Assembly: GCA_028289445.1 (NCBI GenBank)
Contig: JANQPO010000017.1
Span: forward strand, 479,537-543,536
Source of the DNA: Tepidamorphaceae bacterium
Lineage (GTDB): Bacteria > Pseudomonadota > Alphaproteobacteria > Rhizobiales > JAKSCL01
Length of the DNA stretch: 64,000 nucleotides
Direction of reading: 5' to 3'
Shown piece after piece: positions 8,216 to 23,250 of the stretch. The notes under the pieces are model-generated. The model was not told the DNA's origin. It did no database searches and saw nothing but the letters and a program-made list of their open reading frames with translations. Each line of letters begins with the position of its first letter. Position 1 is the stretch's first letter. A program made the translations under genes and the position numbers.

Positions 8216-8325
8216 ATTGCGTTGCGATTTGGAACGCATGGGCTATTGTGACGTAAGCGCGATGCGTCCGGCGCAGGGGCAATGGTGCAGGCGCTCAAAG
8301 AATTACCATGGGAGGAAACCTACGA

Positions 8326-9354
8326 ATGCATACGTTGTCAAAGGCATTAGGGGCGGTCGCGGCCGTCGGTCTGTTTGCTGGTGTGGGCCTGTCGGTCGCA
8401 CAAGCACAGAACACGCAGCTGCGCATCCAAACCCACTACGCGCCCGAAACCGTTTCGGGCAAGCTCGCCGCGCAATATGTCGAGGACATCACCAAAATGT
8501 CCAACGGTGAGATCCAGGTCGAGATGTTCTACTCGTCCTCCGTCGTCAAGTCGGTCGAGACGTTCGACGCTGCGGCGACCGGTATCCTCGATTGCGACAT
8601 GACGGGCGGCGGCTATCAGACGGGTAAGAACCCGGCGTTCCAGTTCGTCGGCGACATCATGGGCGGTTACGACACACCGTATCAGCAGCTCTCATGGCTC
8701 TATTATGGCGGTGGTCTTGAAGACGCCCAGGCGCTTTACAACAAGTACGACATGCAGCTTGTCGGCTGGTGGGTCTATGGCCAGGAGTCGCTCTCTTCAT
8801 CGAAGCCGATCGCCGGCCCGGACGATTTCAAGGATTGGAAATTCCGTTCGCCTCCGGGCATGGAAACCAAGATCTTCGAAAAGCTCGGCGCCAAGCCGAT
8901 CGTGATGGACTTCACCGAAATCTTCACCGCGCTTGAAACCGGCATCATCGACGGCGCCGATGCGTCGGGCCTGGCCAATAATGTCGGCCTCGGCCTCTAC
9001 GATCTGGTCAAGCACGCCAACTTCCCCGGCTTCCACTCCATGCCGTCGGATCACCTGGCGTGCAACAAGGCGAAGTGGGACGCAATGCCGGAGAACCATC
9101 GCACCATTATGTCGGTGGCGATGGAAGCGCTCGCGCTACGGACCGCGCTGACGTTCGAGAAGGCGAATGCCGAGGCTGCCGCCGAGTTGCGCGAAAAGGG
9201 CGTGACGCTGCACCAGTGGTCGGCTGCAGATCTGCAGACCTTCCGCGATGCCGCCCAGGCGACATGGCCTGAGTTCGCCACCACGCCGGAAGCCAAGGCG
9301 CTGGTGGAAAGCCACCTCAACTACCTCACGCAGCTGGGTCTCGTTTCCCAGTAA
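8326..9354 (+). CDS. TRAP transporter substrate-binding protein (DctP type)
   Basis: ORF 8308-9354 trimmed to the ATG at 8326, preceded by the gggagga RBS. Signal peptide MHTLSKALGAVAAVGLFAGVGLSVAQA. Followed by DctQ- and DctM-type genes. Confidence 0.85.
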   Translation: MHTLSKALGAVAAVGLFAGVGLSVAQAQNTQLRIQTHYAPETVSGKLAAQYVEDITKMSNGEIQVEMFYSSSVVKSVETFDAAATGILDCDMTGGGYQTGKNPAFQFVGDIMGGYDTPYQQLSWLYYGGGLEDAQALYNKYDMQLVGWWVYGQESLSSSKPIAGPDDFKDWKFRSPPGMETKIFEKLGAKPIVMDFTEIFTALETGIIDGADASGLANNVGLGLYDLVKHANFPGFHSMPSDHLACNKAKWDAMPENHRTIMSVAMEALALRTALTFEKANAEAAAELREKGVTLHQWSAADLQTFRDAAQATWPEFATTPEAKALVESHLNYLTQLGLVSQ

Positions 9355-9368
9355 GCTGTCGCGAAAAT

Positions 9369-9400
9369 GGGCGGGGTCGTGTGTCGACCTCGCCCTCTTT
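9369..9400 (+). terminator. Intercistronic stem-loop after the TRAP binding-protein gene (attenuator or mRNA stabiliser)
   Basis: gggcggggtcg (9369-9379) pairs with cgacctcgccc (9385-9395) with one G-U pair, followed by tcttt. Confidence 0.45.
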
Positions 9401-9421
9401 GGCGTGGGGAGCTAAGCCGCC

Positions 9422-9991
9422 ATGGTTGAACACGAGCGCACGGGTCCGGTCGACCTTGTCGTTTGGGGGTTCAGTAGGATCGCCATGATCCTACCGGCGG
9501 TCATCGTTTCGATCATGTTCTATGAAGTGGTGATGCGCTATGTCTTCGCGCGGCCGACGCTTTGGGTGAACGAGGCGTCGCTTTGGCTTGCCGGCATGGT
9601 CTACCTCTTTGCCGGGCTCTACGCCATGCAGCAGCGCAGCCATATTCGAATCTTCATTCTCTACGACATGGTTCCGCGCTGGCTGCGCCGCACGTTCGAT
9701 GTCTTGTCCGTGGCGTGTCTAAGTGGGTTCGCGATCGCCACGATCTGGGGCGGCTACGGCGAAGCCTATGCGAAACTGATGCGGTGGGAGAGGTTCGGCA
9801 CGGCCTGGGATCCACCGATCCCTGCGACCATGAAACCGCTGATCCTGCTGACGCTGGTGTTCGTGATGCTGCAGGCGATTTCCAATCTCGTTCACGATTG
9901 GAACCGGGATCCCGAGCACCACGATCCCGCCGACGAGGTCGACTTCGAAATCGAGGAAATCAAAGCGGCCCAGGCCGCGCCGAAAGAGTAG
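9422..9991 (+). CDS. TRAP transporter small permease (DctQ type)
   Basis: 189 aa with four hydrophobic segments, positioned between the DctP- and DctM-type genes. Acidic C-terminal tail. Confidence 0.8.
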   Translation: MVEHERTGPVDLVVWGFSRIAMILPAVIVSIMFYEVVMRYVFARPTLWVNEASLWLAGMVYLFAGLYAMQQRSHIRIFILYDMVPRWLRRTFDVLSVACLSGFAIATIWGGYGEAYAKLMRWERFGTAWDPPIPATMKPLILLTLVFVMLQAISNLVHDWNRDPEHHDPADEVDFEIEEIKAAQAAPKE

Positions 9992-10036
9992 CGCAGCGCC
10001 GGCAGGCGCGTCGGTCGCGGACGGGGGAGTGCGGCG

Positions 10037-11623
10037 ATGGACATCGGGACAATTTCGCTGGTCCTGCTGATCGGCATGCTGGCCTTGCTGGCGATCGGCA
10101 TGCCGCTGGGCTTTGCATCCGGCTTTTTGGCCGTCGTCGTCATGGTCATGAAGTTCGGTCCGGACCTTTTGTTCGGGAATTTCGGGACCGGGCCGCTCAA
10201 CATCCTGGCGCAGCGCATGTATGGGCTGACCACCGACTATGTGCTGATCTCCGTTCCGCTGTTCATTCTCATGGCGACACTGTTGGAGCGATCCGGGATC
10301 GCGCGCGACATGTATTCGTCGCTGTCCATGTGGCTCAACCGCACGCGCGGCGGCATCGCCATCGTCACGTCGCTCATGGCTGTCGTCATGGCCGCGATGT
10401 CGGGCATCATCGGCGGTGAAGTGGTGCTTTTGGGCCTGATCGCGCTGCCGCAAATGCTGCGGCTCGGCTACAACCAAAACCTCGCCATCGGCACGATCTG
10501 CGCCTCCGGTTCGCTGGGCACGATGATCCCACCGTCGATCGTGCTGATTTTCTATGGACTGATTACCGAGACATCGATCCACGCGCTGTTTAAAGGCGCC
10601 TTCGTGCCGGGCTTCATCCTGGCGTCCTGCTACATCGTCTACATACTTGTGCGCACGCGCATGAATCCGTCCCTGGCGCCGCTGCCGGAACCCGGCCCGG
10701 AAGACATGACGGGGCAGCAAAAGCTGATCTACGGCGCCTCGCTTCTGTCGATGATCGCCGTTGTCTACATGGCGATTACGATCGTGCGGACCGTGTTCTT
10801 GATCGGGTTCGACCGGGTCGACGAAGAAACGACGGTCCTCACGACCGCGCAGATGATGACGCGGGGCGGGATCATGGCGATCCTTCTCGCTTTCCTTCTC
10901 TTTTATGTCGGGAAGGAGCGGGTCAAAGGGGCCTGGGATGCCGGCAAGGGGCTGTTGGCACCGCTTCTGGTCGTCGGCGTTGTGCTCGGCTCGATCTATG
11001 GCGGCATCACCGGCATCACCGAGGCGGCCGGCATGGGTACGGTCGCGGTCCTTATCCTCATCATCCTGCGCGGCGAGTTTTCCCTCACTCTCGTGCGCGA
11101 GGCTTTGATGCGCACGTTCAAATCGACGGGCACGATCATCTGGGTGACGTTCGGCGCCACGGCATTGGCGGGCGCCTATACGATTGCCGGCGGCCCAACC
11201 TATGTCGCTAACTTGATCGTCGGCTATGAGCTTCCAACGCTCGGCGTCCTCATGGTCATGATGATCATCTTCTTGTTTTTGGGCGCCTTCATGGACTGGG
11301 TCGGCATCGTTCTTTTGGTCATGCCGGTCTTCTTGCCGATCGTCCTGAAGCTGCCGATCGAGGAGATTGGCGTCTTCGCGCCATTGGTCGAGAATCCGCG
11401 CTTCGTATCGGTCTGGTTCGGCATCCTCTTTTGCGTAAACATGCAGGTGTCGTTCTTGTCGCCGCCGTTTGGGCCGGCGGCGTTCTATCTCAAGTCCGTC
11501 GCGCCGCCGCACATCACGCTGCCCGATATCTTCCGGGGCTTCTTGCCCTTCATCTGCCTGCAAATCTTCGTGCTCATGCTCATCCTGTTCTTCCCGGAAC
11601 TGACCATGTTCTTTGCGGAGTAG
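10037..11623 (+). CDS. TRAP transporter large permease (DctM type)
   Basis: 528 aa polytopic membrane protein with typical DctM length and context. Confidence 0.85.
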   Translation: MDIGTISLVLLIGMLALLAIGMPLGFASGFLAVVVMVMKFGPDLLFGNFGTGPLNILAQRMYGLTTDYVLISVPLFILMATLLERSGIARDMYSSLSMWLNRTRGGIAIVTSLMAVVMAAMSGIIGGEVVLLGLIALPQMLRLGYNQNLAIGTICASGSLGTMIPPSIVLIFYGLITETSIHALFKGAFVPGFILASCYIVYILVRTRMNPSLAPLPEPGPEDMTGQQKLIYGASLLSMIAVVYMAITIVRTVFLIGFDRVDEETTVLTTAQMMTRGGIMAILLAFLLFYVGKERVKGAWDAGKGLLAPLLVVGVVLGSIYGGITGITEAAGMGTVAVLILIILRGEFSLTLVREALMRTFKSTGTIIWVTFGATALAGAYTIAGGPTYVANLIVGYELPTLGVLMVMMIIFLFLGAFMDWVGIVLLVMPVFLPIVLKLPIEEIGVFAPLVENPRFVSVWFGILFCVNMQVSFLSPPFGPAAFYLKSVAPPHITLPDIFRGFLPFICLQIFVLMLILFFPELTMFFAE

Positions 11624-11643
11624 CCTGAGGAACCCACCGCCCT

Positions 11644-12735
11644 ATGGCGACGATCGCGACTATCGAGACGGGATTCTTTCGCATTCCGCTGAAAGAAACC
11701 CTGGTCGATGCGCGCCACGGCGTGCATCGCGACTTTGAATTGATCACCGTTGCCGTTACGGACGAAGACGGCGCGACGGGCGTCGGCTACACCTATACCG
11801 GCGGGCGCAATGGCGGTGCGATCTTCGATGTGGCGTCTCGCGAGATCGTCGAACTCGCCGCCGGCCAGGACGCCGACCGGATCGAAAAACTGTGGGACAC
11901 GATCTGGTGGGCGACCCATTACGGCGGGCGGGGCGGCGCGACGATCTTCGCGCTGTCCGCCTTCGACATGGCGTTGTGGGACCTGAAGGCACGCCGAGCC
12001 GGTCTGCCGCTTTGGACGATGCTTGGCGGCTACGACCCTGCGGTCGACTGTTATGCTGGTGGTATCGATCTGCATCTTTCGCCGGACGATCTGATTGCCC
12101 AGTCAGAGAAGAACGTCGCGCGCGGTTTTCGCGCCATCAAGATGAAGGTGGGACGCGACCGGCTGTCGGAAGACGTGGACAAGCTCGCTGCCATGCGCGG
12201 CCATTTCGGCGACGATTTTCCGCTTATGGTCGATGCCAACATGAAGTGGACCGTCGATGAGGCGATCCGCGCCGCGCGTGCCTTTGCGCCCTATGACCCC
12301 GTCTGGCTGGAGGAGCCGATCATCCCCGACGATCTGGAGGGGTTTGCGCGTGTCGTGCGCGACGGCGGATTGCCGATCGCGACCGGTGAGAATATGCGCA
12401 CGATCTGGGAGTTCCGCCAAGCGATCACCATCGGCAAGATCGGCTTTCCCGAGCCGGACGTCACCAATTGCGGCGGCGTCACGCCGTTCATGAAGATTGC
12501 GCACCTGGCCGAGGCCTTCAATCTGCCGGTCACCACCCATGGCGCGCACGATGTGACCGTCCACTTGCTCGCCGCCGTGCCGAACGCTTCGTACTTGGAG
12601 GCGCACGGCTTCGGTCTCGACGATTATATCGAAAGCCCGATGGAGATCGTTGACGGGAAGGCGATCGCACCGAGCAGGCCTGGCCACGGCGTGGTCTTCG
12701 ATTGGGCGGCGCTGGACCGGGTGCGTGCCGGATAA
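11644..12735 (+). CDS. Enolase-superfamily enzyme, mandelate racemase/muconate lactonizing subgroup
   Basis: 363 aa. KxK motif (IKMKVG), metal ligands in MVDANMKW, WLEEP and ATGEN, and a late His (THGAHD). Confidence 0.8.
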   Translation: MATIATIETGFFRIPLKETLVDARHGVHRDFELITVAVTDEDGATGVGYTYTGGRNGGAIFDVASREIVELAAGQDADRIEKLWDTIWWATHYGGRGGATIFALSAFDMALWDLKARRAGLPLWTMLGGYDPAVDCYAGGIDLHLSPDDLIAQSEKNVARGFRAIKMKVGRDRLSEDVDKLAAMRGHFGDDFPLMVDANMKWTVDEAIRAARAFAPYDPVWLEEPIIPDDLEGFARVVRDGGLPIATGENMRTIWEFRQAITIGKIGFPEPDVTNCGGVTPFMKIAHLAEAFNLPVTTHGAHDVTVHLLAAVPNASYLEAHGFGLDDYIESPMEIVDGKAIAPSRPGHGVVFDWAALDRVRAG

Positions 12736-12759
12736 CGAGAGCAACAAGGGAGCGGAACC

Positions 12760-13653
12760 ATGGCCCATCGTGAAGTCCTCACCGACGCTCAAGTCGCGCA
12801 TTACCGCGACACAGGCTATCTGGTCCTGGAAGACCGCATCCCTTCGGAGATCATCGCCGCCATCCGCGCGGAGATCGCCCGCTTCGAGGACGAAGCGCGC
12901 GGCATGACGGAGTCGAACGATCGGCTCGATCTTGAAGACACCCATACGCCCGAAAGCCCGCGCGTGCGGCGCATCAAGCTCCCCCACACCACCAGCGATG
13001 TGATGCGCGATCTGTTGACATCGGATCATATCCTGGCACCGGTGCGCGATCTGATCGGCCCGAACCTGCGGCTGCACACGACAAAACTGAACATGAAATC
13101 GGCCGGCTACGGCGCGGCGATCGAGTGGCATCAGGACTTCGCGTTCTATCCCCATAGCAATGACGATGTGCTCGCCGTCGGCGTTATCATCGACGACATG
13201 GGCGAGGAGAACGGCCCGCTGATGGTTTTTCCGGGCTCCCACAAGGGTCCGATCCACGATCATCATCTTGACGGGGTCTTCGTCGGCGCGATGGACCTGA
13301 AGGCCTGCGGTTACGACCTAGCCGATGCCGTTGCGCTTTCAGGGCCGGCCGGATCGATCTCCATTCACCATGGCCGCATCGTGCACGGTTCGGCGCTCAA
13401 CACCTCGGACCGTGACAGGCGGTTGCTGTTCTATGAGATGATGGCGGCGGACGCCTTTCCAATCATGGGGAGCATGACCACGTTTGCTTCTATCGAAGAG
13501 TACAACGCTAAGATGCTGTGCGGCGCGCCGACCCTTCAGCCGCGCCTGACGGACGTGCCCGTGCGCATTCCGCAACCCCAGCCGGAACTCAATCGCTCGA
13601 TCTACGAAGTTCAGTCTCGTTTGCGGGCGCGTTCGTTTGAAAAAATCGCCTGA
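12760..13653 (+). CDS. Phytanoyl-CoA dioxygenase (PhyH) family Fe(II)/2-oxoglutarate oxygenase
   Basis: 297 aa. N-terminal YRDTGYLVLED, facial-triad region IEWHQDFAFYP, and a later His in SISIHHGRIVHGS. RBS aagggag. Confidence 0.75.
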   Translation: MAHREVLTDAQVAHYRDTGYLVLEDRIPSEIIAAIRAEIARFEDEARGMTESNDRLDLEDTHTPESPRVRRIKLPHTTSDVMRDLLTSDHILAPVRDLIGPNLRLHTTKLNMKSAGYGAAIEWHQDFAFYPHSNDDVLAVGVIIDDMGEENGPLMVFPGSHKGPIHDHHLDGVFVGAMDLKACGYDLADAVALSGPAGSISIHHGRIVHGSALNTSDRDRRLLFYEMMAADAFPIMGSMTTFASIEEYNAKMLCGAPTLQPRLTDVPVRIPQPQPELNRSIYEVQSRLRARSFEKIA

Positions 13654-13695: not shown

Positions 13696-14595
13696 ATGAC
13701 CGCCCCGGTCGCCGTCGCCTCGTCCGATCGGACTCCTTTTGCCATCGGCTTGGTTTTGATCGCGTTTTTCTCCTTTTCGTTCGTCGATACGGGCGTCAAA
13801 TGGCTGGCGATTGCCGGGATGCCGGCCCTGCAATTGGCGTTCATGCGCTATGTTGGCCACTTCGCCATTTCGGCCGTGTTGATTGCGTCGGGCGGGCTGG
13901 ATTGGCGCCGCTTTGCGACCGACCGTTGGGGCGTGGTGGTCGTGCGCGGTCTCTTGCTTCTCGGCTCGACAGTGTTCAATTTTTTCGCCGTCGGCTATCT
14001 CCCGTTGACCCTGACGGCGACGATCCTGTTCTCGGCGCCGATCATCGTCTGCGCCTTGTCCGGCCCGATGCTGGGCGAACGCGTCGGCATCTGGCGCTGG
14101 TCGGCGATCATTGTTGGCTTTGTTGGGATTTTGGTTGCCATCAGGCCGTTCGGCGAGGCGTTCCATCCGGCCGCGTTCTTGTCACTTGCCGCCGCGACGT
14201 GTTTCGCCGTCTACGTCATCCTGACGCGCAAGGTTGCGAGCGAGATCCCCACGGACACCATGCAGTTTTACTCCGGACTGGTGGGAACGGTGGCGATGCT
14301 GCCGTTTGCAATCCTGGAATGGCAGACGCCGGCCACTGGCATCGATTGGACGATCTTGGTCATGCTCGGCTTTTTCGCTTGGGCGGGCCATCAATTGTTG
14401 ATCCGGGCCAATGCCTATGCGCCGCCGAGCGCCGTCATGCCGTTCAGCTATTCGTTCATTGTCTATCTGACGATCTGGAGCGCCTTGGTGTTCGGTCAGT
14501 TGCCGAACGGCCAGACGATCGTGGGCGCGGCAATCATCGTTGCCGCCGGCCTGTTCATCTGGTTTCGCGAACGCAGGCTTCAGCTTAGCGCTTGA
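13696..14595 (+). CDS. DMT superfamily (EamA/RhaT) transporter
   Basis: 299 aa with about 10 hydrophobic segments and a two-EamA-repeat architecture. Confidence 0.75.
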   Translation: MTAPVAVASSDRTPFAIGLVLIAFFSFSFVDTGVKWLAIAGMPALQLAFMRYVGHFAISAVLIASGGLDWRRFATDRWGVVVVRGLLLLGSTVFNFFAVGYLPLTLTATILFSAPIIVCALSGPMLGERVGIWRWSAIIVGFVGILVAIRPFGEAFHPAAFLSLAAATCFAVYVILTRKVASEIPTDTMQFYSGLVGTVAMLPFAILEWQTPATGIDWTILVMLGFFAWAGHQLLIRANAYAPPSAVMPFSYSFIVYLTIWSALVFGQLPNGQTIVGAAIIVAAGLFIWFRERRLQLSA

Positions 14596-15091
14596 GCGTG
14601 ATCTCGCTGAGGTCCGCCGACTCGCCGGTGTCGTCGACCGTGCCCGAGCTGGCAATCGTGAACTCATCGGGCGAAAGGTGCCATGTCATGGTGGCGGAGA
14701 CATCCTGCTGGGTCTCCGGGTCCTTGCCGCGGACTTGAAACGTAATGATGTCGCCATTGCGCAAGCCCCGGATGTCCCTCGCACCGGCTCCGAACGGGTT
14801 GGACCAAACGCCGGCATAGGCCTTGCCGCCCTCCAGTTCGTCGATATAGCCCTCGACCTTGACCGCCTTTCCCGGAGACGCGCATTTGCCGTTCAGCGCA
14901 AGGCGCCGATTGTTGCGCTGGTAGTTCGCGGTGATGCGGCAGCGAATGGCTTCCGGTGCGCCGGAGACGGAGCGTTTCACCCAGCCCGATCCCGTCCAGG
15001 GTCCGTCGATGGGCGCCAGTATCGTCTCAGCGGTTGCCGGCCCTGTCGCGACGCAGACCAGAGCGACGACAATCGAGGCAAGCCGGATCAT
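14585..15091 (-). CDS. Secreted hypothetical protein (last gene of the KAS III/RND operon)
   Basis: ORF 14585-15103. I prefer the ATG at 15091, which forms an ATGA overlap with the RND stop (15088-15090). Signal peptide MIRLASIVVALVCVATGPATA. Two Cys in the mature part. I recognise no family. Confidence 0.6.
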   Translation of the reverse strand: MIRLASIVVALVCVATGPATAETILAPIDGPWTGSGWVKRSVSGAPEAIRCRITANYQRNNRRLALNGKCASPGKAVKVEGYIDELEGGKAYAGVWSNPFGAGARDIRGLRNGDIITFQVRGKDPETQQDVSATMTWHLSPDEFTIASSGTVDDTGESADLSEITLKR

Positions 15092-17304
15092 CGCCGTGCC
15101 CATCGTTGGCGCAAGAGCGCAGGCAGAAGAAGAAGATCGGCCAAGAGGGCCGTCACGAAGGTTAGTATCAAGAGCATTCCGAACAATCTCACCACCTCAA
15201 AAGCGCTTGCGAAGACAACCAACAATCCCGCCGAAATGATGACGGTCGTTGCGATCATCACCCGGCCGGTTTGGTTGATCGCCAGGTCAAGCGCGGCGTC
15301 GACATCGAGGCCGCGCTCGCGTTCCAGGCGATAACGATTGGTGAAATGGATCGAATCGTCAATGGCAATCCCGAAGGCGATGGTGAGTGCGATGACGGCC
15401 GTTGGATTGGCCTGACCGTTGTTGAGGATGTGGAGCGCCGATGCGGTGACCAACAGCGGCAGCAGATTGGGGGCGACCAGGACCAGCGCCAGGGTCGGCC
15501 AGCGAAACGCCGCTGCAACCACCGCTATGGCAAGGAGGCACGCGGCGATCAGTCCGATGCCGAGCTGACCGACGATGGCGATCGGTTCGTGGCGCAAGAT
15601 CACGGGCAAGCCGGTGATCCGTTCCGCGCCGGCGGACAGGGCGGCGGCTTCGATCCGATCGTGAACGGCGCGGGTCTCGTGGCTGCGCATCGGCTCTGGC
15701 GCGAAGGTCACCACGCGCGCCATCGTACCCTGCGGCGAGGTGAGTTGATGCCGCAGATCTTCGGGAACGTCGATCATCTCCTCCGCCGTCGGTATGCGCT
15801 CCGGCGTTCCAAGCCATCGGGCGACCGAAGCGAGAGAGATGACCGAATAGTCGGGCGCCGCATCCTCGATCGCGGCGGTCAGTCGAGTCAGTCGTGCCCA
15901 TCCGTCAGGTGTTTCAAGTGCCGCATCGCCTGTGGCTTCGATCTCGCTCCAGATTCGCAAGAACCCACCGAACTCGGCCTCGATGGTCTCATTGGCATGC
16001 CGCATATCGCTGTCGAGCGGCAGGTATTGGTGCAGCGGGAACCAGGGTTCGATCCGCCAGAATCCAATCGCGCTTGCAACAGCAATCACAAGCGCGATCG
16101 CGATCACGCACCGATCCTTGGTCATCACCGCGCGCGCAACAGCGCCCGGGACGCGCAAAAGGTCGGTCGACCATTTTGGTTGCGATGAGGCTCGGGCGCA
16201 TAGCGGCGCCATCAGCGCGAAGGTCGTGACGACCACCACATAGGACACGACAACGCCGAGACTGCCGACGACGGCCATTTCGAACAATTGGTCGTTGTCG
16301 GTGAGCGCGATCGCGATGAAGGCAATGGCCGTTGTGATCGCCGTCAGCCCGCAGGCGGGCGCGATGTCGCGCACCGAGCGGTCGATCCGGTCGCGCACCG
16401 GCAACGACGGGTCCGATCTAACCAGATGCATCGTCAAATGGATGCTGTCGGCGAGGCCCAGCACGAGGATCAGCAGCGGCACGACATTGCTGATCACCGT
16501 GATCGGATAGTCGAACAAGACGAAGATCGAGACGCTGACAAGGGCGCCCAGCAGGGCTGGGATCATGGCGACGAGTGCCGCCGATAGCTGCCCGAAAACG
16601 AGGAAGGCCAGCAGGAATGCGATGGCACTACCGGCCGCATTCAACACGACGATGTCGTCCTGGATGCCGTCGACGATCTCCGTGGTGATCGCGTTCTCGC
16701 CGGTGACCGTGAAGCGCAGGCCGGGGCCGGCGAAGTCCTGGGTGAGCTGTCGAAACGCCGCCAAAACGGCGCGGATGTCGACAGCATCGTTCTTGGTATC
16801 GATGGCTGCGGCCATGATCAGTATTCGACTGTCGGCCGCGATCAGCGGCTTGAGCGAAGGGTCGGTCGCGCGGTAGGCCGCTAGGCGGGCGGTTGCTTCA
16901 TCGATGTCGATGACCGCTGGAAAGACCGGCTCGCCTGGAAAGTCGGGATGGGTCTTCGCGAAGCGCGCCGAAAAGGGCGAGACGACCGATGTCACATGGT
17001 CGGCCAGCTCCAGTTCGAGCGCCAGATCGCGCAGGCGCGTCAGATCGTTGGCGGAGAACGGGTCATCGGCTTCCGCCAAGACGACGATGTCGGTGATGCG
17101 GGTCCCCAAGGTTTCCAGGAAGTCCGCATAATCCTGCGACTGCTGGCTTTGCGACGAGAAGGCCCGCAGCATGTCGTCATCGAAGCGGGCGGACGGCACG
17201 GCCAAGAGTGCCGCCAGAACGACACCGGCAAGGATCACCGTTGCCCAAACCGGCCGCCGCAGCGCGAAGAGGCCGGGCGCGGCAAGGCCGATGGCACTAA
17301 TCAT
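15088..17304 (-). CDS. RND-superfamily exporter of the MMPL/HpnN type
   Basis: 738 aa. Two repeats, each a large periplasmic loop plus a 5-6-helix bundle (e.g. VVPLLILVLGLADSIHLTMH and TIAFGIAIDDSIHFTNRY). Confidence 0.8.
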   Translation of the reverse strand: MISAIGLAAPGLFALRRPVWATVILAGVVLAALLAVPSARFDDDMLRAFSSQSQQSQDYADFLETLGTRITDIVVLAEADDPFSANDLTRLRDLALELELADHVTSVVSPFSARFAKTHPDFPGEPVFPAVIDIDEATARLAAYRATDPSLKPLIAADSRILIMAAAIDTKNDAVDIRAVLAAFRQLTQDFAGPGLRFTVTGENAITTEIVDGIQDDIVVLNAAGSAIAFLLAFLVFGQLSAALVAMIPALLGALVSVSIFVLFDYPITVISNVVPLLILVLGLADSIHLTMHLVRSDPSLPVRDRIDRSVRDIAPACGLTAITTAIAFIAIALTDNDQLFEMAVVGSLGVVVSYVVVVTTFALMAPLCARASSQPKWSTDLLRVPGAVARAVMTKDRCVIAIALVIAVASAIGFWRIEPWFPLHQYLPLDSDMRHANETIEAEFGGFLRIWSEIEATGDAALETPDGWARLTRLTAAIEDAAPDYSVISLASVARWLGTPERIPTAEEMIDVPEDLRHQLTSPQGTMARVVTFAPEPMRSHETRAVHDRIEAAALSAGAERITGLPVILRHEPIAIVGQLGIGLIAACLLAIAVVAAAFRWPTLALVLVAPNLLPLLVTASALHILNNGQANPTAVIALTIAFGIAIDDSIHFTNRYRLERERGLDVDAALDLAINQTGRVMIATTVIISAGLLVVFASAFEVVRLFGMLLILTFVTALLADLLLLPALLRQRWARR

Positions 17305-17322
17305 CGGCGGTCCACAGCCAGC

Positions 17323-18045
17323 TCACCTGTAAAAGTACCGAAAGCCGACGGAGACGGCATTGTCGAAGCCGGCCTGCATTTCCGACCGGAAGCTGGCCGC
17401 CGCATTTCGGTCGTTGAACTCGGCTTCAGATCGGAAAATCCCGGAATAGCGCAGGCTGAGATCGACTTTCTCCGTCATCGTGATATTGACGCCGGCCATC
17501 AGACACAGGACGCCGAACGTGTCGGAATCCGAGATCAAGAAGCGGCCGCCCTTCTTGCCCACACCATCCTGCTTCATATGGGCGAAACCGCCGCCGAGAC
17601 CGACGAACGGCACGATGGTTTCGGAGACTTCCGGGAAATCATAAAAGGCGGCGGCCGTGGCGGCGAACATGTGGATTTGGCCAGTGCCGTCGCGCTTTCG
17701 GCCCGCATCCGGATTGCCCGCGAAACCGTTCTTGAACCGCATGGTGAAGTTCGTGAACTGACCGTAGGCCACGGACGTTTCAAGATGGATGCGGCGGGTC
17801 GGATAATAGCCATGGACCAGCGCTAGGACGCCGCCCAGTTTAGAGCGCATATCGATATCGCCGGTGAACCGCGCGCCGATGGAATTGGTCATGCGAACAT
17901 CGACGGGTGCCGGCAGATTTGTGCCCAGATGCATCTCGACATAGGCCCGCCGACCGGGCTCGGGCGCCTCGAACAACCATCGGTCTGCGGCTGCCTCCGA
18001 CACCAGGCCAAACGCACAGATCAACCCTATCGCCATGCGCTTCAT
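17323..18045 (-). CDS. Outer-membrane beta-barrel protein (OmpA-like/OmpW-like small barrel)
   Basis: 240 aa. Signal peptide MKRMAIGLICAFGLVSEAAA. Alternating amphipathic strands. Aromatic C-terminus ...VGFRYFYR. Confidence 0.65.
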   Translation of the reverse strand: MKRMAIGLICAFGLVSEAAADRWLFEAPEPGRRAYVEMHLGTNLPAPVDVRMTNSIGARFTGDIDMRSKLGGVLALVHGYYPTRRIHLETSVAYGQFTNFTMRFKNGFAGNPDAGRKRDGTGQIHMFAATAAAFYDFPEVSETIVPFVGLGGGFAHMKQDGVGKKGGRFLISDSDTFGVLCLMAGVNITMTEKVDLSLRYSGIFRSEAEFNDRNAAASFRSEMQAGFDNAVSVGFRYFYR

Positions 18046-18057
18046 GCCGCTGCCCCC

Positions 18058-19086
18058 CTAAAACGTGAACAAGCTTAGGCCAATGGATATTCCTGCGCCA
18101 CCGGAGATGACCAGAACCCGGTCACCGCGCGTGATCTGCCGCTGATCGATGGCAAGGCTGAGCGCGAGCGGCACACTGGCGGAAACCGTGTTGCCATAAT
18201 CGCGATGGATGTCGAAGTGGCGGTCGGCGGGCAGTTTCAGCGCCTCCAAGAGGCGGTCCGAAAAGCGTGCGCTGGCGCTGTGAATGAGGCTGATATCGTA
18301 GTCTGGATCGATGAGCCAAGGTGTTTCGGCGAACATCTTTTCTATCAGAATTTGGCACGCCGACAGAAGGTCGGTGGAATAGGAGTAAAACTTCTCCGGT
18401 TCGATCCGCTCGGATAGCTGCGGGGCGAAACGGCCGACGTTCTTGAGCGGGATCATGCACAGGTCATGGTGCTCCGCTTCAGTTGCGAAAGTGACGTCGA
18501 TATCGGGGCCATCGGCGGTGAGGACCGTCGCGGTCGCCGCTTCTCCAACGGTGAGACCGGCCAGATAGCGGTCGAGGTCGGATGACGACTGAAGCTCGAA
18601 TTGGCCGAAGTCGGTCATGCCCGCTTCGCAGTTGACCACGAGCGCGGTTTTATAGTTCCCCGTCTTGAGGAGGGCCTGGACGACTTCTAGTGCGCGGAGC
18701 CAACTGACGCAGGCGTCCAGAATGTCGAAGGCCGTTGCGCTGTGTGCCCCCAATTGGTGTTGGACCAAGCTGGCATGGGACGGTTCGACGGCGCCGCGCC
18801 CGACGCCGACATAGATGACGAGGTCGAGATCGTTTGCGGTCAGCTCAGCGGCCTCAAGTGCGTCGCGAGCAGCGTCGATCGTCATGTGGAACACCGGGGC
18901 GTCGAACTCGGCGACATGACGGCGTTCGGTTCCGCTCAATACGAATCCGGCCTGTAGCCGACGTTCCAGGCGATCCAGTTCGGCTGCGGAGCAATGAGCG
19001 GCACTAGCGGCCCGAACCAGCGCCGCGAGATCGTCATTGCTCAACACCCGATCGGGCAGGCGGTGCCGTACCGACGCAATCTTCAA
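18058..19086 (-). CDS. 3-oxoacyl-ACP synthase III (FabH)-like condensing enzyme, non-housekeeping context
   Basis: 342 aa with a TTG start. Cys126 (DILDACVSW), His269 (SLIHSAS), Asn299 (DYGNTVSASVPLAL). The His-to-Asn spacing of 30 is as in E. coli FabH. C-terminal GGAGISIG. Confidence 0.8.
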   Translation of the reverse strand: MKIASVRHRLPDRVLSNDDLAALVRAASAAHCSAAELDRLERRLQAGFVLSGTERRHVAEFDAPVFHMTIDAARDALEAAELTANDLDLVIYVGVGRGAVEPSHASLVQHQLGAHSATAFDILDACVSWLRALEVVQALLKTGNYKTALVVNCEAGMTDFGQFELQSSSDLDRYLAGLTVGEAATATVLTADGPDIDVTFATEAEHHDLCMIPLKNVGRFAPQLSERIEPEKFYSYSTDLLSACQILIEKMFAETPWLIDPDYDISLIHSASARFSDRLLEALKLPADRHFDIHRDYGNTVSASVPLALSLAIDQRQITRGDRVLVISGGAGISIGLSLFTF

Positions 19087-19154
19087 GCCAACGCCCCTTT
19101 TCCCCTTCGGATTTCACCGTAGTGAAGGTGGATTGGGCGTCAACGGAGCGTGCC

Positions 19155-20261
19155 TCACTTTCCAGTGATTTCGTCGATACCCCAGTCACTTAGCACCTCG
19201 GCCGTGTGTTCGCCCGGCTTTGGTGGCGACCGCTGGATGCTTGGCTCTGTCCGGCTGAAGCGTGGGGCGGGGGCCGGTTGGACGACGCCGTCGCGCTCGA
19301 CAAAGGTGCCGCGAGCCTGATTGTGGGAGTGGGCGGGTGCTTCGTTCATGTCGAGGATTGGCGCGAAGCACACATCGGTTCCCTCCAGACGCTCGCACCA
19401 CTCGGCGCGCGTCTTCGACTTGAAGATTGCTTGAAACTTTTCCCTCAGAGCCGGCCAAGACGCCGTGTCCTCGCGGGCGTCGAACGCATGATCGTCGGCA
19501 CCGATCTTTTCCCGCAAAAGGGCATAGAACTGCGGTTCGATGGCACCGATGCCGATCCATTTGCCGTCCGCGCATTCGAAGGTGCCGTAGTAGGGCGCGC
19601 CGCCATCGAGGAAATTGCTCTCTCGCGCATTCGTCCAATGGCCGTCCGCCTTGAAGCCGTAGATCATGGTCATGAGATGCGCGGCGCCATCCGTCATCGC
19701 CGCGTCGATCACCTGGCCTTGACCGGAAGACCGCGCCTCAAGCAGTGCGCACACCATGCCGAACGCCAGATAGAGCGCGCCGCCACCGAAATCGCCGATC
19801 AGATTGAGCGGCGGAACCGGTCCGCCCGCCTTCGTGCCGATGGAATGCAGCGCACCGGTGAGCGCGATGTAATTGATATCGTGACCGGCCGCGTGGGCGA
19901 GGGGACCGTCCTGGCCCCAGCCCGTCATCCGCCCATAGACCAGCTTGGGATTGTGCGCCAGGCAGGTCTCCGGCGACAGACCCATCCGCTCCATCACGCC
20001 GGGCCGGAAGCCCTCGATCAGGCCGTCGGCTTTGCCGATCAGCGCCTTGGCGCGCGCCAGACCCTCCGGCGTCTTCACATTGGCGGCGACCGACCGGCGG
20101 CCACGCGCCAACACATCGTAGGTTACAGCGATACCGGTGTGCGCATCCGGCCGCTCGATCCGCACGACATCGGCACCCATGTCGGCCAACAGCATCGCGG
20201 CGAACGGGCCGGGGCCAATGCCCGCCATTTCAACGATCCGGATGCCGGCAAGCGGTCCCAT
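19155..20261 (-). CDS. Class III CoA-transferase (CaiB/BaiF family; alpha-methylacyl-CoA racemase-like)
   Basis: 368 aa. The N-terminus [38 protein letters not shown] is diagnostic of the family. Confidence 0.85.
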
Positions 20262-20277
20262 GAGATTTACGCTCCGG

Positions 20278-21102
20278 TCAAAAGGTCAGGCCACCGCCGA
20301 CGATCAAGGTCTGTCCGCTGATGTAATTCGACTCCGGCGCGCACAGGAGATAGACGCCATCGGCGGCCTCCTCTGGCGTGCCGGCCCGGCCGAGCGGGAT
20401 GATCATTTGCACCATCGCCGCCATGCCCTTGGGGATGCCGACGGCGATGTCGTTGCCATCGACCGTGATCGTCTTTTTTTCGTCGACCGCTTCGGTCAGT
20501 CGCGTTTCGATCAGGCCGAGGGCGACGCAATTGACGTTGACCTTGTAGCGTCCCCATTCCTTGGCCATGGCGCGCGTCAGCCCGATCACGCCGGCCTTGG
20601 CGGATGCATAGTTCGCCTGGCCGACATTGCCGCCGGTCGCCGCGATGGACGAAATATTGACGACCTTGCGGAACACTTCGGTGCCGGCCTCGGCTTCGGC
20701 CTTCGCGGTTGAGCGGATGAAGTCGCTCGCCGCGCGCAGGATTCGGAAGGGGGCCTTCAGATGGACATCGAGCATGGCGTCGAACTGATCGTCGCCCATG
20801 TCCTGGATCATTGAGTCCCAGGTGTAGCCGGCATTGTTGACGATGATGTCGACGCCGCCGAACGTGTCGATCCCGGTCTGGATGAAGCGGTCGGCGAAGC
20901 CGTCGTCAGTGACGCTGCCGATGGCGGCGGTGGCGCGACCGCCAGCGGCTTCGATGGCGTCAATCGTCTCGCCGACCGGTTCTTTATCTAGATCGTTGAC
21001 GACGACGGCCGCGCCCTCGCGCGCCAGTTTCAGGGCGATCGCGCGGCCGATGCCGCGGCCCGCGCCGGTCACATAAGCGGTCTTGCCGGTGAGCTTGCTC
21101 AT
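20278..21102 (-). CDS. SDR family oxidoreductase (FabG-like)
   Basis: 274 aa. [12 protein letters not shown] cofactor motif and the catalytic NYASAKAG (YxxxK). Confidence 0.85.
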
Positions 21103-21190
21103 GATCCCCCGTCACCCGTTTCTAGCGTTGAACCAGCGAACGGGCTTTTGGCGATCAAGGCAAGGGCGAAATTTGAGTCGGTGCCGTGGG

Positions 21191-22102
21191 TTACGCCGAT
21201 TTCTTAATGAACGTGCCGGCGTTCAGGTCGCGCATCGCCTGGCGGAGTTCGTCCTGGGTGTTCATGACGATCGGGCCATGCCAGGCGACCGGTTCGCGGA
21301 TGGGGCTGCCGGAGACCAACAGAAAGCGGATACCGTGTTCGCCGGCCTGAACGGTGATCGTATCGCCGGTGCCGAACAGCACGAGCGAGCGGTCGCCGGT
21401 CCGGTCGCGGATCAGAATTTCTTCGCCGCCGGCTTCTTTCTCCAACAGAACGCCGACAGGATCCGACGCGTCGCGGAACGTGCCGGCGCCTTCGAAGATA
21501 TAGGCGAAGGCCTTTTGATATGTGTCGACCGGCAAGGTCTTCTTGATGCCGGGCGGGATGAAAATGTCGAGATAGCGCGGCTGCGCCGCGATCCCATCGA
21601 CCGGGCCGATCTGGCCCCAAAACGTGCCGCAAATGACCTTAACGCGGGTGCCGTCATCGTCGATGATCTCTGGAATGTCGGTGGCCTTGACGTCCTGATA
21701 GCGCGGGTCGGTCATCTTCAAGCTGGACGGCAGGTTCGCCCAAAGCTGGAAACCGTGCATGCGGCCAGCCGCGTCGCCCTTCGGCATCTCTTGATGCAGG
21801 ATGCCGCTGCCGGCGGTCATCCACTGCACGTCGCCAGCCTCAAGCGCGCCGACATTGCCGAGCGAGTCGCCATGATCGACCGTGCCGGTCAGCACATAGG
21901 TGATGGTCTCGATGCCGCGATGGGGATGCCAGGGAAAACCGCGCAGATAGTCTTCCGGCCGATCGTTGCGGAAGTCGTCGAAAAGCAGGAACGGGTCGGC
22001 GAGGTCCGGGTCGCCGAAGCCGAAGGCGCGGTGCAGTTTGACACCAGCGCCTTCTAGCGTTGGCTGGGCTTCGGAAATCTGGGCGACGGGACGAATGGAC
22101 AT
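21191..22102 (-). CDS. Pirin family protein
   Basis: 303 aa. Cupin metal site FPWHPHRGIETITYVL and a typical pirin bicupin length. Confidence 0.85.
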   Translation of the reverse strand: MSIRPVAQISEAQPTLEGAGVKLHRAFGFGDPDLADPFLLFDDFRNDRPEDYLRGFPWHPHRGIETITYVLTGTVDHGDSLGNVGALEAGDVQWMTAGSGILHQEMPKGDAAGRMHGFQLWANLPSSLKMTDPRYQDVKATDIPEIIDDDGTRVKVICGTFWGQIGPVDGIAAQPRYLDIFIPPGIKKTLPVDTYQKAFAYIFEGAGTFRDASDPVGVLLEKEAGGEEILIRDRTGDRSLVLFGTGDTITVQAGEHGIRFLLVSGSPIREPVAWHGPIVMNTQDELRQAMRDLNAGTFIKKSA

Positions 22103-22207
22103 GGGACAACGCAGCTCCGGCCTTTAGGGAATGGACAGTCTACGCCAGTCCATATCGTTCTGGACATTGAGAAAGGCCAGTCCACGAAAAGTGGACAGAC
22201 TGTCCAC
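22096..22207. promoter_or_regulatory. Array of seven TGGAC/GTCCA pentamers, including a perfect 17-bp palindrome, upstream of pirin
   Basis: TGGAC at 22096, 22132, 22161 and 22192. GTCCA at 22148, 22180 and 22202. gtggacagactgtccac (22191-22207) is a perfect 8+1+8 palindrome. gtccac-N5-gtggac lies at 22180-22196. On the minus strand the palindrome is followed by ttttcg, so it may double as the terminator of the LacI-family gene. Confidence 0.45.
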
Positions 22208-22230
22208 GCCTGTGCACCAAGGCAAGGACC

Positions 22231-23250
22231 CTAGGGCGCGGGGCCGGTCGAGCGGCCAAGCACCAACTCAGCCTCCCACAGTTCCTGCGTATGCTCCATC
22301 GCCGGGTCATCGATGTGCTGGATGAGGATCTCCGCCGCGCGCTTGCCGGCCTTGCGGATCGACGAGCGGATCGAAGTCAGGAGCGGGATTTCACGATTGT
22401 CCTCGATGAACGACAAACAGTCGTCATAGGCGATCAGCGAAACGTCTTGACCCAATTGCAGTCCACGTTCTTGAACGGCTCTTACGACACCAAGGGCCGG
22501 GATCATGCTGGACGCGACAACCGCGGACGGCGGGTCCGGCAGATCGAACATCGCGGTCATGGCCGAATAGCCATAGGGTTCGATCATGTCGGCGGAGTGC
22601 ATGAGGTCCGGATCGGTGGCGATGCCGCGTCGATCGAGCGCTTCCAGATATCCCCGCCGCCGCCGGTCGGCGAAGCCCATGTTCTCCAGTCCGTTGACGA
22701 GCGCGATCCGCTCATGCCCCAGATCGATCAGGAGTTCGGTCGCGCGCTGAAAGGCGCGTCGGTTGTTGACGTCGAGCCAGCTATAGCCGGTTTCGGGATG
22801 CTGGCTGCGGCCATGCACCACGAAGGGAACCTGCAAGTCATTGAGGAGCTTAATCCGCCGGTCGTTGACCATCGGCCCGTGGACGATCAGTCCATCGACG
22901 CGCCGGCTGGCGGCCAAGTTGCGATAGATCATGTCCTCGCGCTCGCCGTCGACCACGGTCATCAGCATGTCATAGTCGGCGTCAGCGTAGGCCTCGCCGG
23001 CGCCGGCGATGAACTCGGCGAAGTGGGGATTAATCATGTCGTGATTGGAGAGGGGCACGACGTGGCCGATCGTGCGGGACTTGCCCGTCGCGAGCCGCGT
23101 GGCGTTGGGACTTGGCCGGTAGTTGAAGTCGCGGGCGGCCGCGGCGACCCGGCGGCGCGTCTCCTCGCTGACCTCTGGATAGCCGTTCAACGCACGGCTC
23201 ACCGTCGTCTGCGACAGGTTCAAATGTTCGGCCAATTGTTTAAGGTTCAC
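22231..23250 (-). CDS. LacI family transcriptional regulator
   Basis: ORF 22231-23271 (TTG) trimmed to the GTG at 23250, giving the typical N-terminal HTH VNLKQLAEHLNLSQTTVSRALNG. Periplasmic-binding-protein-like effector domain. Confidence 0.85.
   Translation of the reverse strand: MNLKQLAEHLNLSQTTVSRALNGYPEVSEETRRRVAAAARDFNYRPSPNATRLATGKSRTIGHVVPLSNHDMINPHFAEFIAGAGEAYADADYDMLMTVVDGEREDMIYRNLAASRRVDGLIVHGPMVNDRRIKLLNDLQVPFVVHGRSQHPETGYSWLDVNNRRAFQRATELLIDLGHERIALVNGLENMGFADRRRRGYLEALDRRGIATDPDLMHSADMIEPYGYSAMTAMFDLPDPPSAVVASSMIPALGVVRAVQERGLQLGQDVSLIAYDDCLSFIEDNREIPLLTSIRSSIRKAGKRAAEILIQHIDDPAMEHTQELWEAELVLGRSTGPAP

Follow-up and report, generated by a model that had tools for sequence, protein, structure and literature searches.

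A candidate make-and-export operon combining a putative OleA/PpyS-type condensing enzyme with an outer-membrane protein, an RND transporter, and a small periplasmic barrel in a Tepidamorphaceae bacterium

Introduction

The described systems closest to the locus examined here are, on the biosynthetic side, condensing enzymes of the beta-ketoacyl-acyl carrier protein synthase III (KAS III) type such as OleA and PpyS and, on the transport side, resistance-nodulation-division (RND) transporters such as HpnN, AmeABCD, and the mycobacterial MmpL proteins. The locus is a row of six minus-strand genes (positions 14585-21102) in a stretch of 64,000 nucleotides (nt), hereafter the window, from the genome of a Tepidamorphaceae bacterium (GenBank assembly GCA_028289445.1, contig JANQPO010000017.1, positions 479,537 to 543,536 of the forward strand). 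Four of these genes encode a putative condensing enzyme, a small outer-membrane protein (OMP), an RND transporter, and a small periplasmic protein termed p168. Here, the possibility is examined that these four form a single unit for the synthesis and export of a lipid.

In assays of OleA enzymes, the 2-alkyl-3-keto acid product decarboxylates spontaneously to a ketone, and a p-nitrophenyl-ester assay was positive for OleA enzymes but not for FabH and Pks13 controls (PMC7064751). OleA carries a conserved glutamate-proline pair, the glutamate of which is an essential general base contributed by the partner subunit and was described as confined, among the thiolases that had been characterised, to homologues of OleA (PMC7064751). 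PpyS/PyrS are stand-alone, KAS III-like enzymes that use a glutamate (E105) acting across the subunit boundary for head-to-head condensation; this residue is essential in PpyS, and MxnB and CorB have valine in its place (PMC4578411).

HpnN is a hopanoid RND transporter of Rhizobiales, and its partner HpnT is a predicted lipocalin-like periplasmic shuttle (PMC12324291). AmeABCD of Castellaniella defragrans is an RND system of the HAE3 type that works with an OMP and periplasmic proteins but no classical membrane-fusion protein, and it serves tolerance to a growth substrate rather than export of a self-made product (PMC6394551). In mycobacteria (MmpL3 with Pks13; MmpL4/5 with MmpS4/5), MMPL-type RND transporters export head-to-head-condensed lipids and have small accessory genes alongside. 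Pairs of a type III polyketide synthase (PKS) and a methyltransferase of the ICMT type, such as BpsA/BpsB and SrsA/SrsB, are a further point of comparison; to the best of our knowledge, the characterised pairs come from Gram-positive bacteria and lack an exporter of the kind described below.

A putative four-gene operon

The genes at 18058-19086, 17323-18045, 15088-17304, and 14585-15091 are best explained as one operon that makes a very hydrophobic condensed lipid, which is then moved outward through the envelope, a reading that we regard as evenly balanced between right and wrong. The strongest argument for it is that the coupling of a condensing enzyme to an exporter is seen twice, independently: relatives of the enzyme lie beside an exporter of the MacB class, and relatives of the RND transporter lie beside type III PKSs. 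A preliminary description of this DNA had proposed that all six genes could form a set for the synthesis and export of one envelope lipid or small lipophilic signal. The linkage recurs in independent genomes, and it is for four genes, not for six, that their gene context would support synthesis and export as a function. The six genes and the one sizeable spacer are as follows.

20278..21102, minus strand: classical short-chain dehydrogenase/reductase (SDR), 274 residues (Pfam adh_short, 6e-46)
19155..20261, minus strand: alpha-methylacyl-CoA racemase, 368 residues (Pfam CoA_transf_3, 6e-86)
19087..19154, minus strand: spacer of 68 nt between the racemase and condensing-enzyme genes (sequence read directly)
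18058..19086, minus strand: putative OleA/PpyS-type condensing thiolase, 342 residues, TTG start (ACP_syn_III_C, 6e-20; ACP_syn_III, 2e-07)
17323..18045, minus strand: probable small outer-membrane beta-barrel protein (the OMP), 240 residues, signal peptide, C-terminal YFYR (OMP_b-brl, 1e-06)
15088..17304, minus strand: RND transporter of the MMPL/HAE3/sterol-sensing type, 738 residues (MMPL, 2e-22; Sterol-sensing, 7e-14; Patched, 1e-08)
14585..15091, minus strand: p168, predicted periplasmic barrel of calycin/nitrobindin fold, 168 residues (no Pfam or NCBIfam family; AlphaFold2 and Foldseek)

The coordinates and spacings of the six minus-strand genes given in the preliminary description were borne out by the open reading frames and by reading of each junction: gaps of 16 nt separate SDR from racemase, 68 nt racemase from condensing enzyme, 12 nt condensing enzyme from OMP, and 18 nt OMP from RND transporter. 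The start/stop overlap reported for the last two genes is also present, in that the RND stop and the p168 start share ATGA, given a p168 start at 15091. From this start, positions 14585-15091 encode 168 residues and not the 172 assigned to them earlier, which would require the alternative upstream ATG at 15103. In two metagenomic copies of the locus, an independent gene caller picked the 168-residue p168 with a 4-nt overlap. The condensing-enzyme gene begins with TTG, a start that is reasonable because full-length homologues cover the N-terminus, and AAGGGG is positioned 8 nt 5' of it. The spacer at 19087-19154 is the sole gap with room for an internal promoter; a consensus scan gave no significant promoter or terminator within it, and promoter and terminator counts across 14300-22400 did not exceed those expected from shuffled sequence, so that the scan is uninformative on operon boundaries. 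The same six-gene order is found in two sequenced relatives, L001 and L091 (L numbers designate the related loci that were compared), both of which belong to the window's own lineage.

Identity of the condensing enzyme

The enzyme had been described as FabH-like and stand-alone. It does have a KAS III fold and does stand outside a fab operon: as the preliminary description had stated, there is no plsX-fabH-fabD-fabG-acpP setting, and no plsX, fabD, fabG, or other fab gene and no acpP or other acyl carrier protein (ACP) gene was found among the main open reading frames of the window. The catalytic residues named earlier, Cys126, His269, and Asn299, are present and align with the triads of solved FabH and OleA enzymes; the triad is common to PpyS too and is therefore non-discriminating. 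The FabH label itself does not hold. The enzyme scores below every NCBIfam FabH cut-off (TIGR00747, 120 vs 292.1 bits; PRK09352, 136 vs 249; PRK09258, 138 vs 285), and just two relatives with more than 50% identity were found among 5.8 billion proteins, which argues that it is not a housekeeping FabH. Models of DarB/StlD also scored below their cut-offs (NF053539, 23.5 vs 550 bits; NF005293, 30.7 vs 450).

The residues that point to OleA and PpyS lie in an Arg-x3-Glu-Pro motif. R97, E101, and P102 are invariant, with the triad, in a 42-member alignment of the enzyme family, and profile alignment to solved structures places the family motif vgRgwlEPata on VSRDYLEPSTA of Xanthomonas campestris OleA, where it contains the catalytic Glu117 (chain residue 103 + 14 as the 358-residue constructs are numbered, roughly 26 residues ahead of the catalytic Cys). 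In the column occupied by Glu101-Pro102 of the window enzyme, three solved FabHs have Phe-Pro, at the position of E. coli Phe87, which we take to be a pocket-capping residue from the partner subunit. An insertion that follows the VxxxE strand is common to the family and OleA, and at the position of F-G-D-G in FabH the family reads T-x-G. The window glutamate lies 25 residues before Cys126, which would be consistent with the published description of PpyS, whose catalytic glutamate (E105) lies about 24 residues before its Cys (PMC4578411). Among 76 metagenomic relatives, 73 keep both the Arg/Glu-Pro motif and the triad, and Glu-Pro itself is present in 74. Two family members (L137 and L161) have Val for the conserved Glu (R-V-P), like MxnB and CorB, and may thus use different chemistry. 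Taken together, these features suggest that the enzyme is better termed an OleA/PpyS-type head-to-head condensing thiolase than FabH-like.

Gene neighbours of the condensing enzyme and the outer-membrane protein

A total of 80 metagenomic loci were gathered with the family alignment of the enzyme; neighbouring genes were clustered, and recurrent ones were named by Pfam. The order oleABCD (oleA, alpha/beta-hydrolase, AMP-binding protein, and 3beta-hydroxysteroid dehydrogenase, 3beta-HSD) is complete in three of these loci (L106, L117, L139) and partly visible in four (L104, L109, L118, L135), and the enzyme relatives in oleABCD clusters are 34-39% identical to the window enzyme. In the window, no match to oleB, oleC, or oleD was found by tblastn with OleB, OleC, and OleD of L117 as queries, and the OMP, RND, and barrel context of the window enzyme is not among the three reported for purified OleAs, namely oleABCD, an oleBC fusion, and oleACD (PMC7064751).

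The closest full-length relatives of the enzyme, at 40-45% identity, are encoded directly 3' of a MacB/FtsX-type permease. A full set of PadR regulator, ATP-binding cassette (ABC) ATPase, and MacB/FtsX permease lies 5' of the enzyme in L002 (6078-11038) and in L004/5, which equals L097 (L004, 4031-9038). In L120 the permease and the ABC ATPase lie 5' of the enzyme relative, and in L003 (5406-9032), L111, and L122 the permease does so with no PadR on record; L003 additionally has a 3beta-HSD/OleD-type reductase after the enzyme homologue. The window has no gene for MacB, a type III PKS, or ICMT.

Other associations recur among the enzyme relatives. A fusion of ABC1 kinase and class-III aminotransferase (about 900 residues) adjoins the enzyme in about ten loci, on its 5' side in some and its 3' side in others. 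In five of them (L145, L148, L157, L158, L159) the enzyme is followed by an ACP and an AMP-binding enzyme, with an ABC ATPase too in 4 of the 5, and in L138, L163, L165, L169, and L171 the fusion occurs without the other partners; this context resembles a cluster for a lipid or aminolipid that has not been described before. Further, a B12-radical-SAM enzyme adjoins enzyme relatives in three loci.

For the OMP, only three clusters were found among 5.8 billion proteins, its own and two others (L172 and L173), and both of the others, which have no Pfam match on record, are encoded directly 3' of a condensing-enzyme homologue. In L172 the enzyme is 54% and the OMP 48% identical to those of the window, and the contig ends after the OMP gene. 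In L173 the corresponding values are 59% and 44%, and an RND gene follows, its start overlapping the OMP stop; this gene was considered as an orthologue of the window RND gene and rejected, its product being only 26% identical. The contigs of L172 and L173 have a GC content of 43-44% compared with 62% in the window, which shows that the linkage of enzyme and OMP, with or without RND, holds across very different genomes. Within the window, the condensing-enzyme and OMP genes have a GC content of 0.60-0.61 and a third-position GC content (GC3) of 0.72-0.75, and the RND, p168, racemase, and SDR genes have values of 0.63-0.65 and 0.78-0.84; the slightly lower values of the former two fit a separate origin of both.

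The RND transporter and p168

The nearest solved relatives of the RND transporter by profile are NPC1, the sterol-sensing domain of HMG-CoA reductase, HpnN, MmpL3, NPC1L1, Dispatched, and MmpL4/5. All of these are movers of lipids or sterols, and with its matches to the Pfam families MMPL, Sterol-sensing, and Patched the protein appears to belong, as had been proposed, to the lipid-moving MMPL/HpnN/NPC1 branch and not to the AcrB-type drug pumps. The best NCBIfam model is HAE3 (TIGR00921), which covers residues 16-731 end to end at 143.7 bits against a cut-off of 351.9. The protein is not an equivalog of HpnN (NF052374, 24.3 vs 1100 bits; TIGR03480, 62 vs 752) or of MmpL3 (NF052608, 19.1 vs 1400 bits). 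Its family is tight, with about 24 clusters at 37-55% identity before a drop to 29%, and is marked by the motifs GxADSxH and GIAxDDSIH; the best relatives, at about 53% identity, come from Hyphomicrobiales metagenome-assembled genomes.

The small protein p168 carries a signal peptide whose cleavage site is A-x-A and which lacks a lipobox. In its family, of which 218 representatives were found among 1.84 billion proteins, G30, G34, G36, and two Cys are invariant, W32 of the same G-x-W-x-G-x-G motif is nearly so, and a C-terminal Arg is mostly conserved; the G-x-W in the first strand and the basic residue in the last strand presumably constitute a calycin signature. The preliminary description had raised the question of a lipocalin-like cavity. 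An AlphaFold2 model built from a 76-sequence alignment (pLDDT 91) has ten antiparallel strands, and Foldseek returned nitrobindin, Rv2717c, which resembles fatty-acid-binding proteins, and OlmO, a polyketide spirocyclase (TM 0.61-0.66, probability 1.0), with lipocalins lower in the list. At the level of fold, p168 is thus predicted to be a ten-strand barrel of the calycin/nitrobindin type. Barrels of the calycin type hold hydrophobic ligands. At E values up to 1, DUF2147, the domain of HpnT, was matched by none of the 76 members of the family, and 26 of the 76 gave a weak match to DUF1579.

The linkage of a lipid-type, HAE3-like RND transporter to a small lipocalin-like barrel with a signal peptide is a feature that the window shares with HpnN and HpnT (PMC12324291); unlike in that system, the window RND transporter scores far below the HpnN cut-offs, p168 lacks DUF2147, and hopanoid genes are not nearby. 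Similarly, an HAE3-like transporter with OMP and periplasmic partners and no classical membrane-fusion protein is common to the window and AmeABCD (PMC6394551), but the AmeABCD partners, a DUF1302 OMP, a LolA-like DUF1329 protein, and a COG4447 protein, are not homologous to those of the window. The mycobacterial MmpL proteins differ in being very distant in sequence and in having MmpS rather than a calycin barrel as accessory, and the window host is a diderm proteobacterium.

The RND-p168 cassette in other genomes

A scan for the RND family with one genome per species yielded 79 loci, the named ones of which are all from Alphaproteobacteria (Hyphomicrobiales or Rhodobacterales). In 67 of the 79, a p168 homologue detected by hidden Markov model (HMM) ends 418-794 nt past the RND stop on the same strand, so that RND and p168 form a conserved core. 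No p168 homologue was found by HMM elsewhere in the 79 loci, and thus no orphan p168. The two genes share 4 nt in all four loci for which independent gene calls exist. None of the 79 loci contains a condensing enzyme or OMP of the window type. The preliminary description had suggested a survey for co-occurrence of the quartet of enzyme, OMP, RND, and p168; the survey bears out adjacency for RND with p168 and for enzyme with OMP, the latter in every OMP-bearing lineage, whereas the full quartet is confined to the window's lineage.

In 11 loci of the closest subfamily (L011-14, L016, L020, L026-29, L060), RND and p168 are preceded in a tight operon by a type III PKS along with a methyltransferase of the ICMT/PEMT type (e.g., L011, 6443-10169; L012, 8428-12720; L028, 8377-12632), and the RND proteins of these operons are 36-53% identical to that of the window. 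The nearest relatives of these PKSs are two alpha-pyrone synthases from Mycobacterium tuberculosis, Pks11 and Pks18, and alkyl-alpha-pyrones, the class of product made by such enzymes, are also the products of PpyS/PyrS. The operons, from Hyphomicrobiales and Rhodobacterales, are predicted to be make-and-export systems for methylated alkylpyrones or alkylresorcinols. The arrangement recalls the BpsA/BpsB and SrsA/SrsB pairs, neither gene of which is present in the window, and the position of the cassette behind such pairs in 11 alphaproteobacterial loci argues that it serves the products of condensing enzymes. RND and p168 would accordingly represent a portable export cassette, coupled to a type III PKS together with a methyltransferase in other Alphaproteobacteria. 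The window operon looks like a mosaic of an enzyme-plus-OMP unit, which also occurs in unrelated low-GC genomes, and a resident alphaproteobacterial RND-p168 cassette.

In five further loci, a DUF5995 protein of about 230-256 residues is encoded directly 5' of RND, sometimes overlapping it:

L009, 7351-8049: DUF5995 gene
L010, 4632-5330: DUF5995 gene
L018, 9220-9990: DUF5995 gene
L030, 1580-2281: DUF5995 gene
L033, 9232-9990: DUF5995 gene

Three loci have two divergent RND genes of the same family a few kilobases apart (L042, 2434-5354 and 9971-12795; L061, 4662-7353 and 9791-12253; L067, 4406-7267 and 9830-12148), with a p168-type partner on both in L042 and on one of the two in L061 and L067.

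Searches of open-access text gave no description of the RND-p168 cassette, of its operon with a type III PKS and methyltransferase, of PpyS accompanied by an RND transporter, an OMP, and a carrier dedicated to it, or of a FabH-like enzyme joined with MMPL, operon, and outer membrane, and nothing relevant on OleA with RND. The same searches turned up no enzyme of the OleA type paired with an OMP and an RND transporter; each separate idea has precedents.

The racemase and the SDR

The gene 5' of the condensing enzyme had been assigned to the class III CoA-transferases. The Pfam family CoA_transf_3 is indeed matched, and the more specific identity is an alpha-methylacyl-CoA racemase: full-length matches to M. 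tuberculosis MCR (PDB 1x74, 3e-119) and to FAR (2g04, 8e-104) exceed that to the best true CoA-transferase (4e-37), and the motifs GHDINY and GDFGGG are present, which we take to carry the catalytic His and Asp. The best solved relative of the SDR is the (3R)-hydroxyacyl-CoA dehydrogenase of yeast MFE-2 (2et6, 7e-58). As a pair, the two look like enzymes of branched-chain beta-oxidation.

The racemase accompanies the four-gene module in L001 and L091 only. No SDR homologue was found next to related condensing enzymes, and just two SDR homologues lie near related RND genes, both on the opposite strand. A synteny test for the SDR, the racemase, and the flanking genes beside RND-p168 in relatives gave only weak matches to paralogues of tripartite ATP-independent periplasmic (TRAP) and ABC transporters, indicating no positional orthology. 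The view of the preliminary description that the six genes are one unit is not upheld, since SDR and racemase join the other four only in the window's own lineage.

Proposed mechanism

Going by its motif and family, the thiolase-fold enzyme would load an acyl-CoA on Cys126 in the cytoplasm, and Glu101 from the partner subunit would act as the base that deprotonates the second acyl thioester. As in OleA and PpyS, the result would be a head-to-head Claisen condensation without decarboxylation, for which neither ACP nor a malonyl unit is needed, which fits the lack of an ACP gene in the window. The product could be a 2-alkyl-3-keto acid that readily decarboxylates to a long-chain ketone or, with a beta-ketoacyl partner as in PpyS, a dialkyl-alpha-pyrone. 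Candidate products are accordingly the long-chain beta-keto acid, the ketone derived from it, and a dialkylpyrone. Judging from family and linkage, the MMPL/HAE3-type RND transporter would pull this product from the inner membrane by means of the proton gradient, and the translationally coupled, periplasmic p168, from its fold and linkage, may take it over as a soluble carrier or act as a pump accessory. In the last step, which is the weakest, the small outer-membrane barrel might receive or insert the product at the outer membrane.

Alternative explanations

A number of observations weigh against the proposed four-gene operon. Across the enzyme family, identity is 24-29% to X. campestris OleA (about 26% for the window enzyme, which is equally far from FabH) and 23-30% to Aquifex FabH, and because these values are nearly equal, the OleA-type assignment is based on the motif together with the insertion and on the genes that surround the relatives. 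A neighbour-joining tree without support values groups the window enzyme with L092, beside a clade of MacB-linked members, with the oleBCD-linked members in other clades. Of the profiles suggested at the outset, ACP_syn_III, ACP_syn_III_C, and MMPL were matched, and OMP_b-brl (PF13505) reached 29.2 bits, barely over its cut-off of 28.7; the OMP, compared with the PDB by profile, gave noise and no sequence match, and its AlphaFold2 model, made from four sequences, is a poor one (all long beta strands, pLDDT 53). The 26% identity of the RND protein in L173 indicates that the condensing enzyme is not tied to the particular pump of the window. Finally, RND-p168 occurs without a biosynthetic neighbour in many loci (L007, L015, L019, L021, L022, L024, L025, L032; e.g., Hoeflea poritis), and the cassette may thus carry a general envelope lipid.

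This last point leads to an unlikely alternative, in which RND and p168 form a general system for trafficking or tolerance of envelope lipids or hydrophobic compounds, like HpnN-HpnT or AmeABCD, the lipid made by the enzyme does not leave the cell or membrane, and co-regulation or chance accounts for the adjacency. Besides the solitary pairs, the varying 5' partner of the cassette (type III PKS with methyltransferase, DUF5995, or nothing) is consistent with it, as are the characterised HAE3 precedents, a monoterpene tolerance pump (PMC6394551) and a hopanoid transporter (PMC12324291). It does not sit well with the very tight spacing in the window (gaps of 12 and 18 nt and an overlap of 4 nt), with another exporter class, MacB, next to the enzyme relatives, with the 11 tight operons of RND relatives and other condensing enzymes, or with the return of the order enzyme-OMP-RND in a genome of 43% GC. 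OmpW and AlkL are examples of small outer-membrane barrels through which hydrophobic molecules enter, which counts toward a catabolic cluster instead: OMP, RND, and p168 would handle an external hydrophobic branched substrate, by uptake or tolerance, and racemase, SDR, and thiolase would degrade it, the thiolase working in the cleavage direction. A racemase and an MFE-2-type dehydrogenase are classic enzymes of branched-chain beta-oxidation, and AmeABCD is an HAE3 pump inside a catabolic island (PMC6394551). We nevertheless consider such a cluster very unlikely, given that KAS III-fold enzymes with the OleA glutamate condense and degradative thiolases form another branch (Thiolase_N matched the enzyme at just 9e-4), that acyl-CoA dehydrogenase, hydratase, and ligase are absent from the cluster, and that other loci link this RND-p168 cassette to type III PKSs, which are biosynthetic.

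The six genes could also act together on alpha-branched chains, condensation being followed by 3-keto reduction by the SDR, setting of C2 by the racemase, and MMPL-type export of a 2-alkyl-3-hydroxy, mycolate-like lipid, in analogy to Pks13-CmrA-MmpL3. Although the close packing on one strand, the order kept in two sequenced relatives, and a coherent chemistry (a racemase that acts at C2 of 2-substituted acyl-CoAs, an SDR nearest to a 3-hydroxyacyl-CoA dehydrogenase) speak for this scheme, it is distinctly unlikely. The characterised racemases closest to that of the window act on 2-methyl acyl-CoAs and are not known to act on long 2-alkyl groups, SDR and racemase occur with the module in the window's lineage only, with no independent co-occurrence, and the 68-nt gap sets them apart from the four packed genes. 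Further, OleD of the Ole pathway is an extended SDR of the 3beta-HSD type and not a classical one; set against this are the OleD-type reductase after the enzyme homologue in L003 and the fact that OleA products are 2-alkyl-3-keto acids (PMC7064751). A full proteobacterial counterpart of mycolate synthesis, in which SDR and racemase turn the thiolase product into a stereodefined 2-alkyl-3-hydroxy lipid that pump, calycin carrier, and OMP install in the outer membrane, is a long shot. That the enzyme is simply an ordinary housekeeping FabH, placed beside transport genes by chance, is scarcely credible: its triad is intact, it has Arg at the position equivalent to FabH Arg249 (HSASAR), and its best single PDB matches are FabHs, but the missed FabH cut-offs, the rarity of close relatives, the Glu-Pro in place of Phe-Pro, and the absence of plsX, fabD, fabG, and acpP nearby all but rule out a sole housekeeping fabH.

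Surroundings of the locus

The genes on either side of the cluster are unrelated to it. On one flank, on the plus strand, lie a TRAP transporter, an enolase-superfamily enzyme, a PhyH dioxygenase, and an EamA transporter, and on the other a pirin, a LacI regulator, and a sugar ABC transporter; the remainder of the window consists of ordinary transport and metabolic genes. The EamA gene (13696-14595, plus strand) and the p168 gene (14585-15091, minus strand) converge, and their 3' ends share 11 nt (14585-14595), so that a terminator would not fit between them; L001 and L091 have this overlap too. The plus-strand operon at 8308-13653, which encodes the TRAP transporter DctPQM, a mandelate racemase/muconate-lactonising enzyme of the enolase superfamily, and the PhyH-family dioxygenase, is probably an organic-acid utilisation unit. 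The PhyH gene (12760-13653) was considered as a member of a branched-lipid theme and rejected, as it lies on the opposite strand within this operon.

Implications

The locus adds a genomic context to those described for OleA (oleABCD, the oleBC fusion, and oleACD), and the comparison draws attention to the many OleA-like enzymes encoded beside exporters. The four genes are small enough to be transferred to a heterologous host for product discovery, and the carrier could be used to fish out its ligand. For the passage across the periplasm of very hydrophobic lipids that Gram-negative bacteria make for themselves, such as ketones, olefins, alkylpyrones, and alkylresorcinols, the locus suggests a compact route, in which an MMPL/HAE3-type pump and its translationally coupled, calycin-fold partner would form the path outward into which various condensing enzymes may be plugged.

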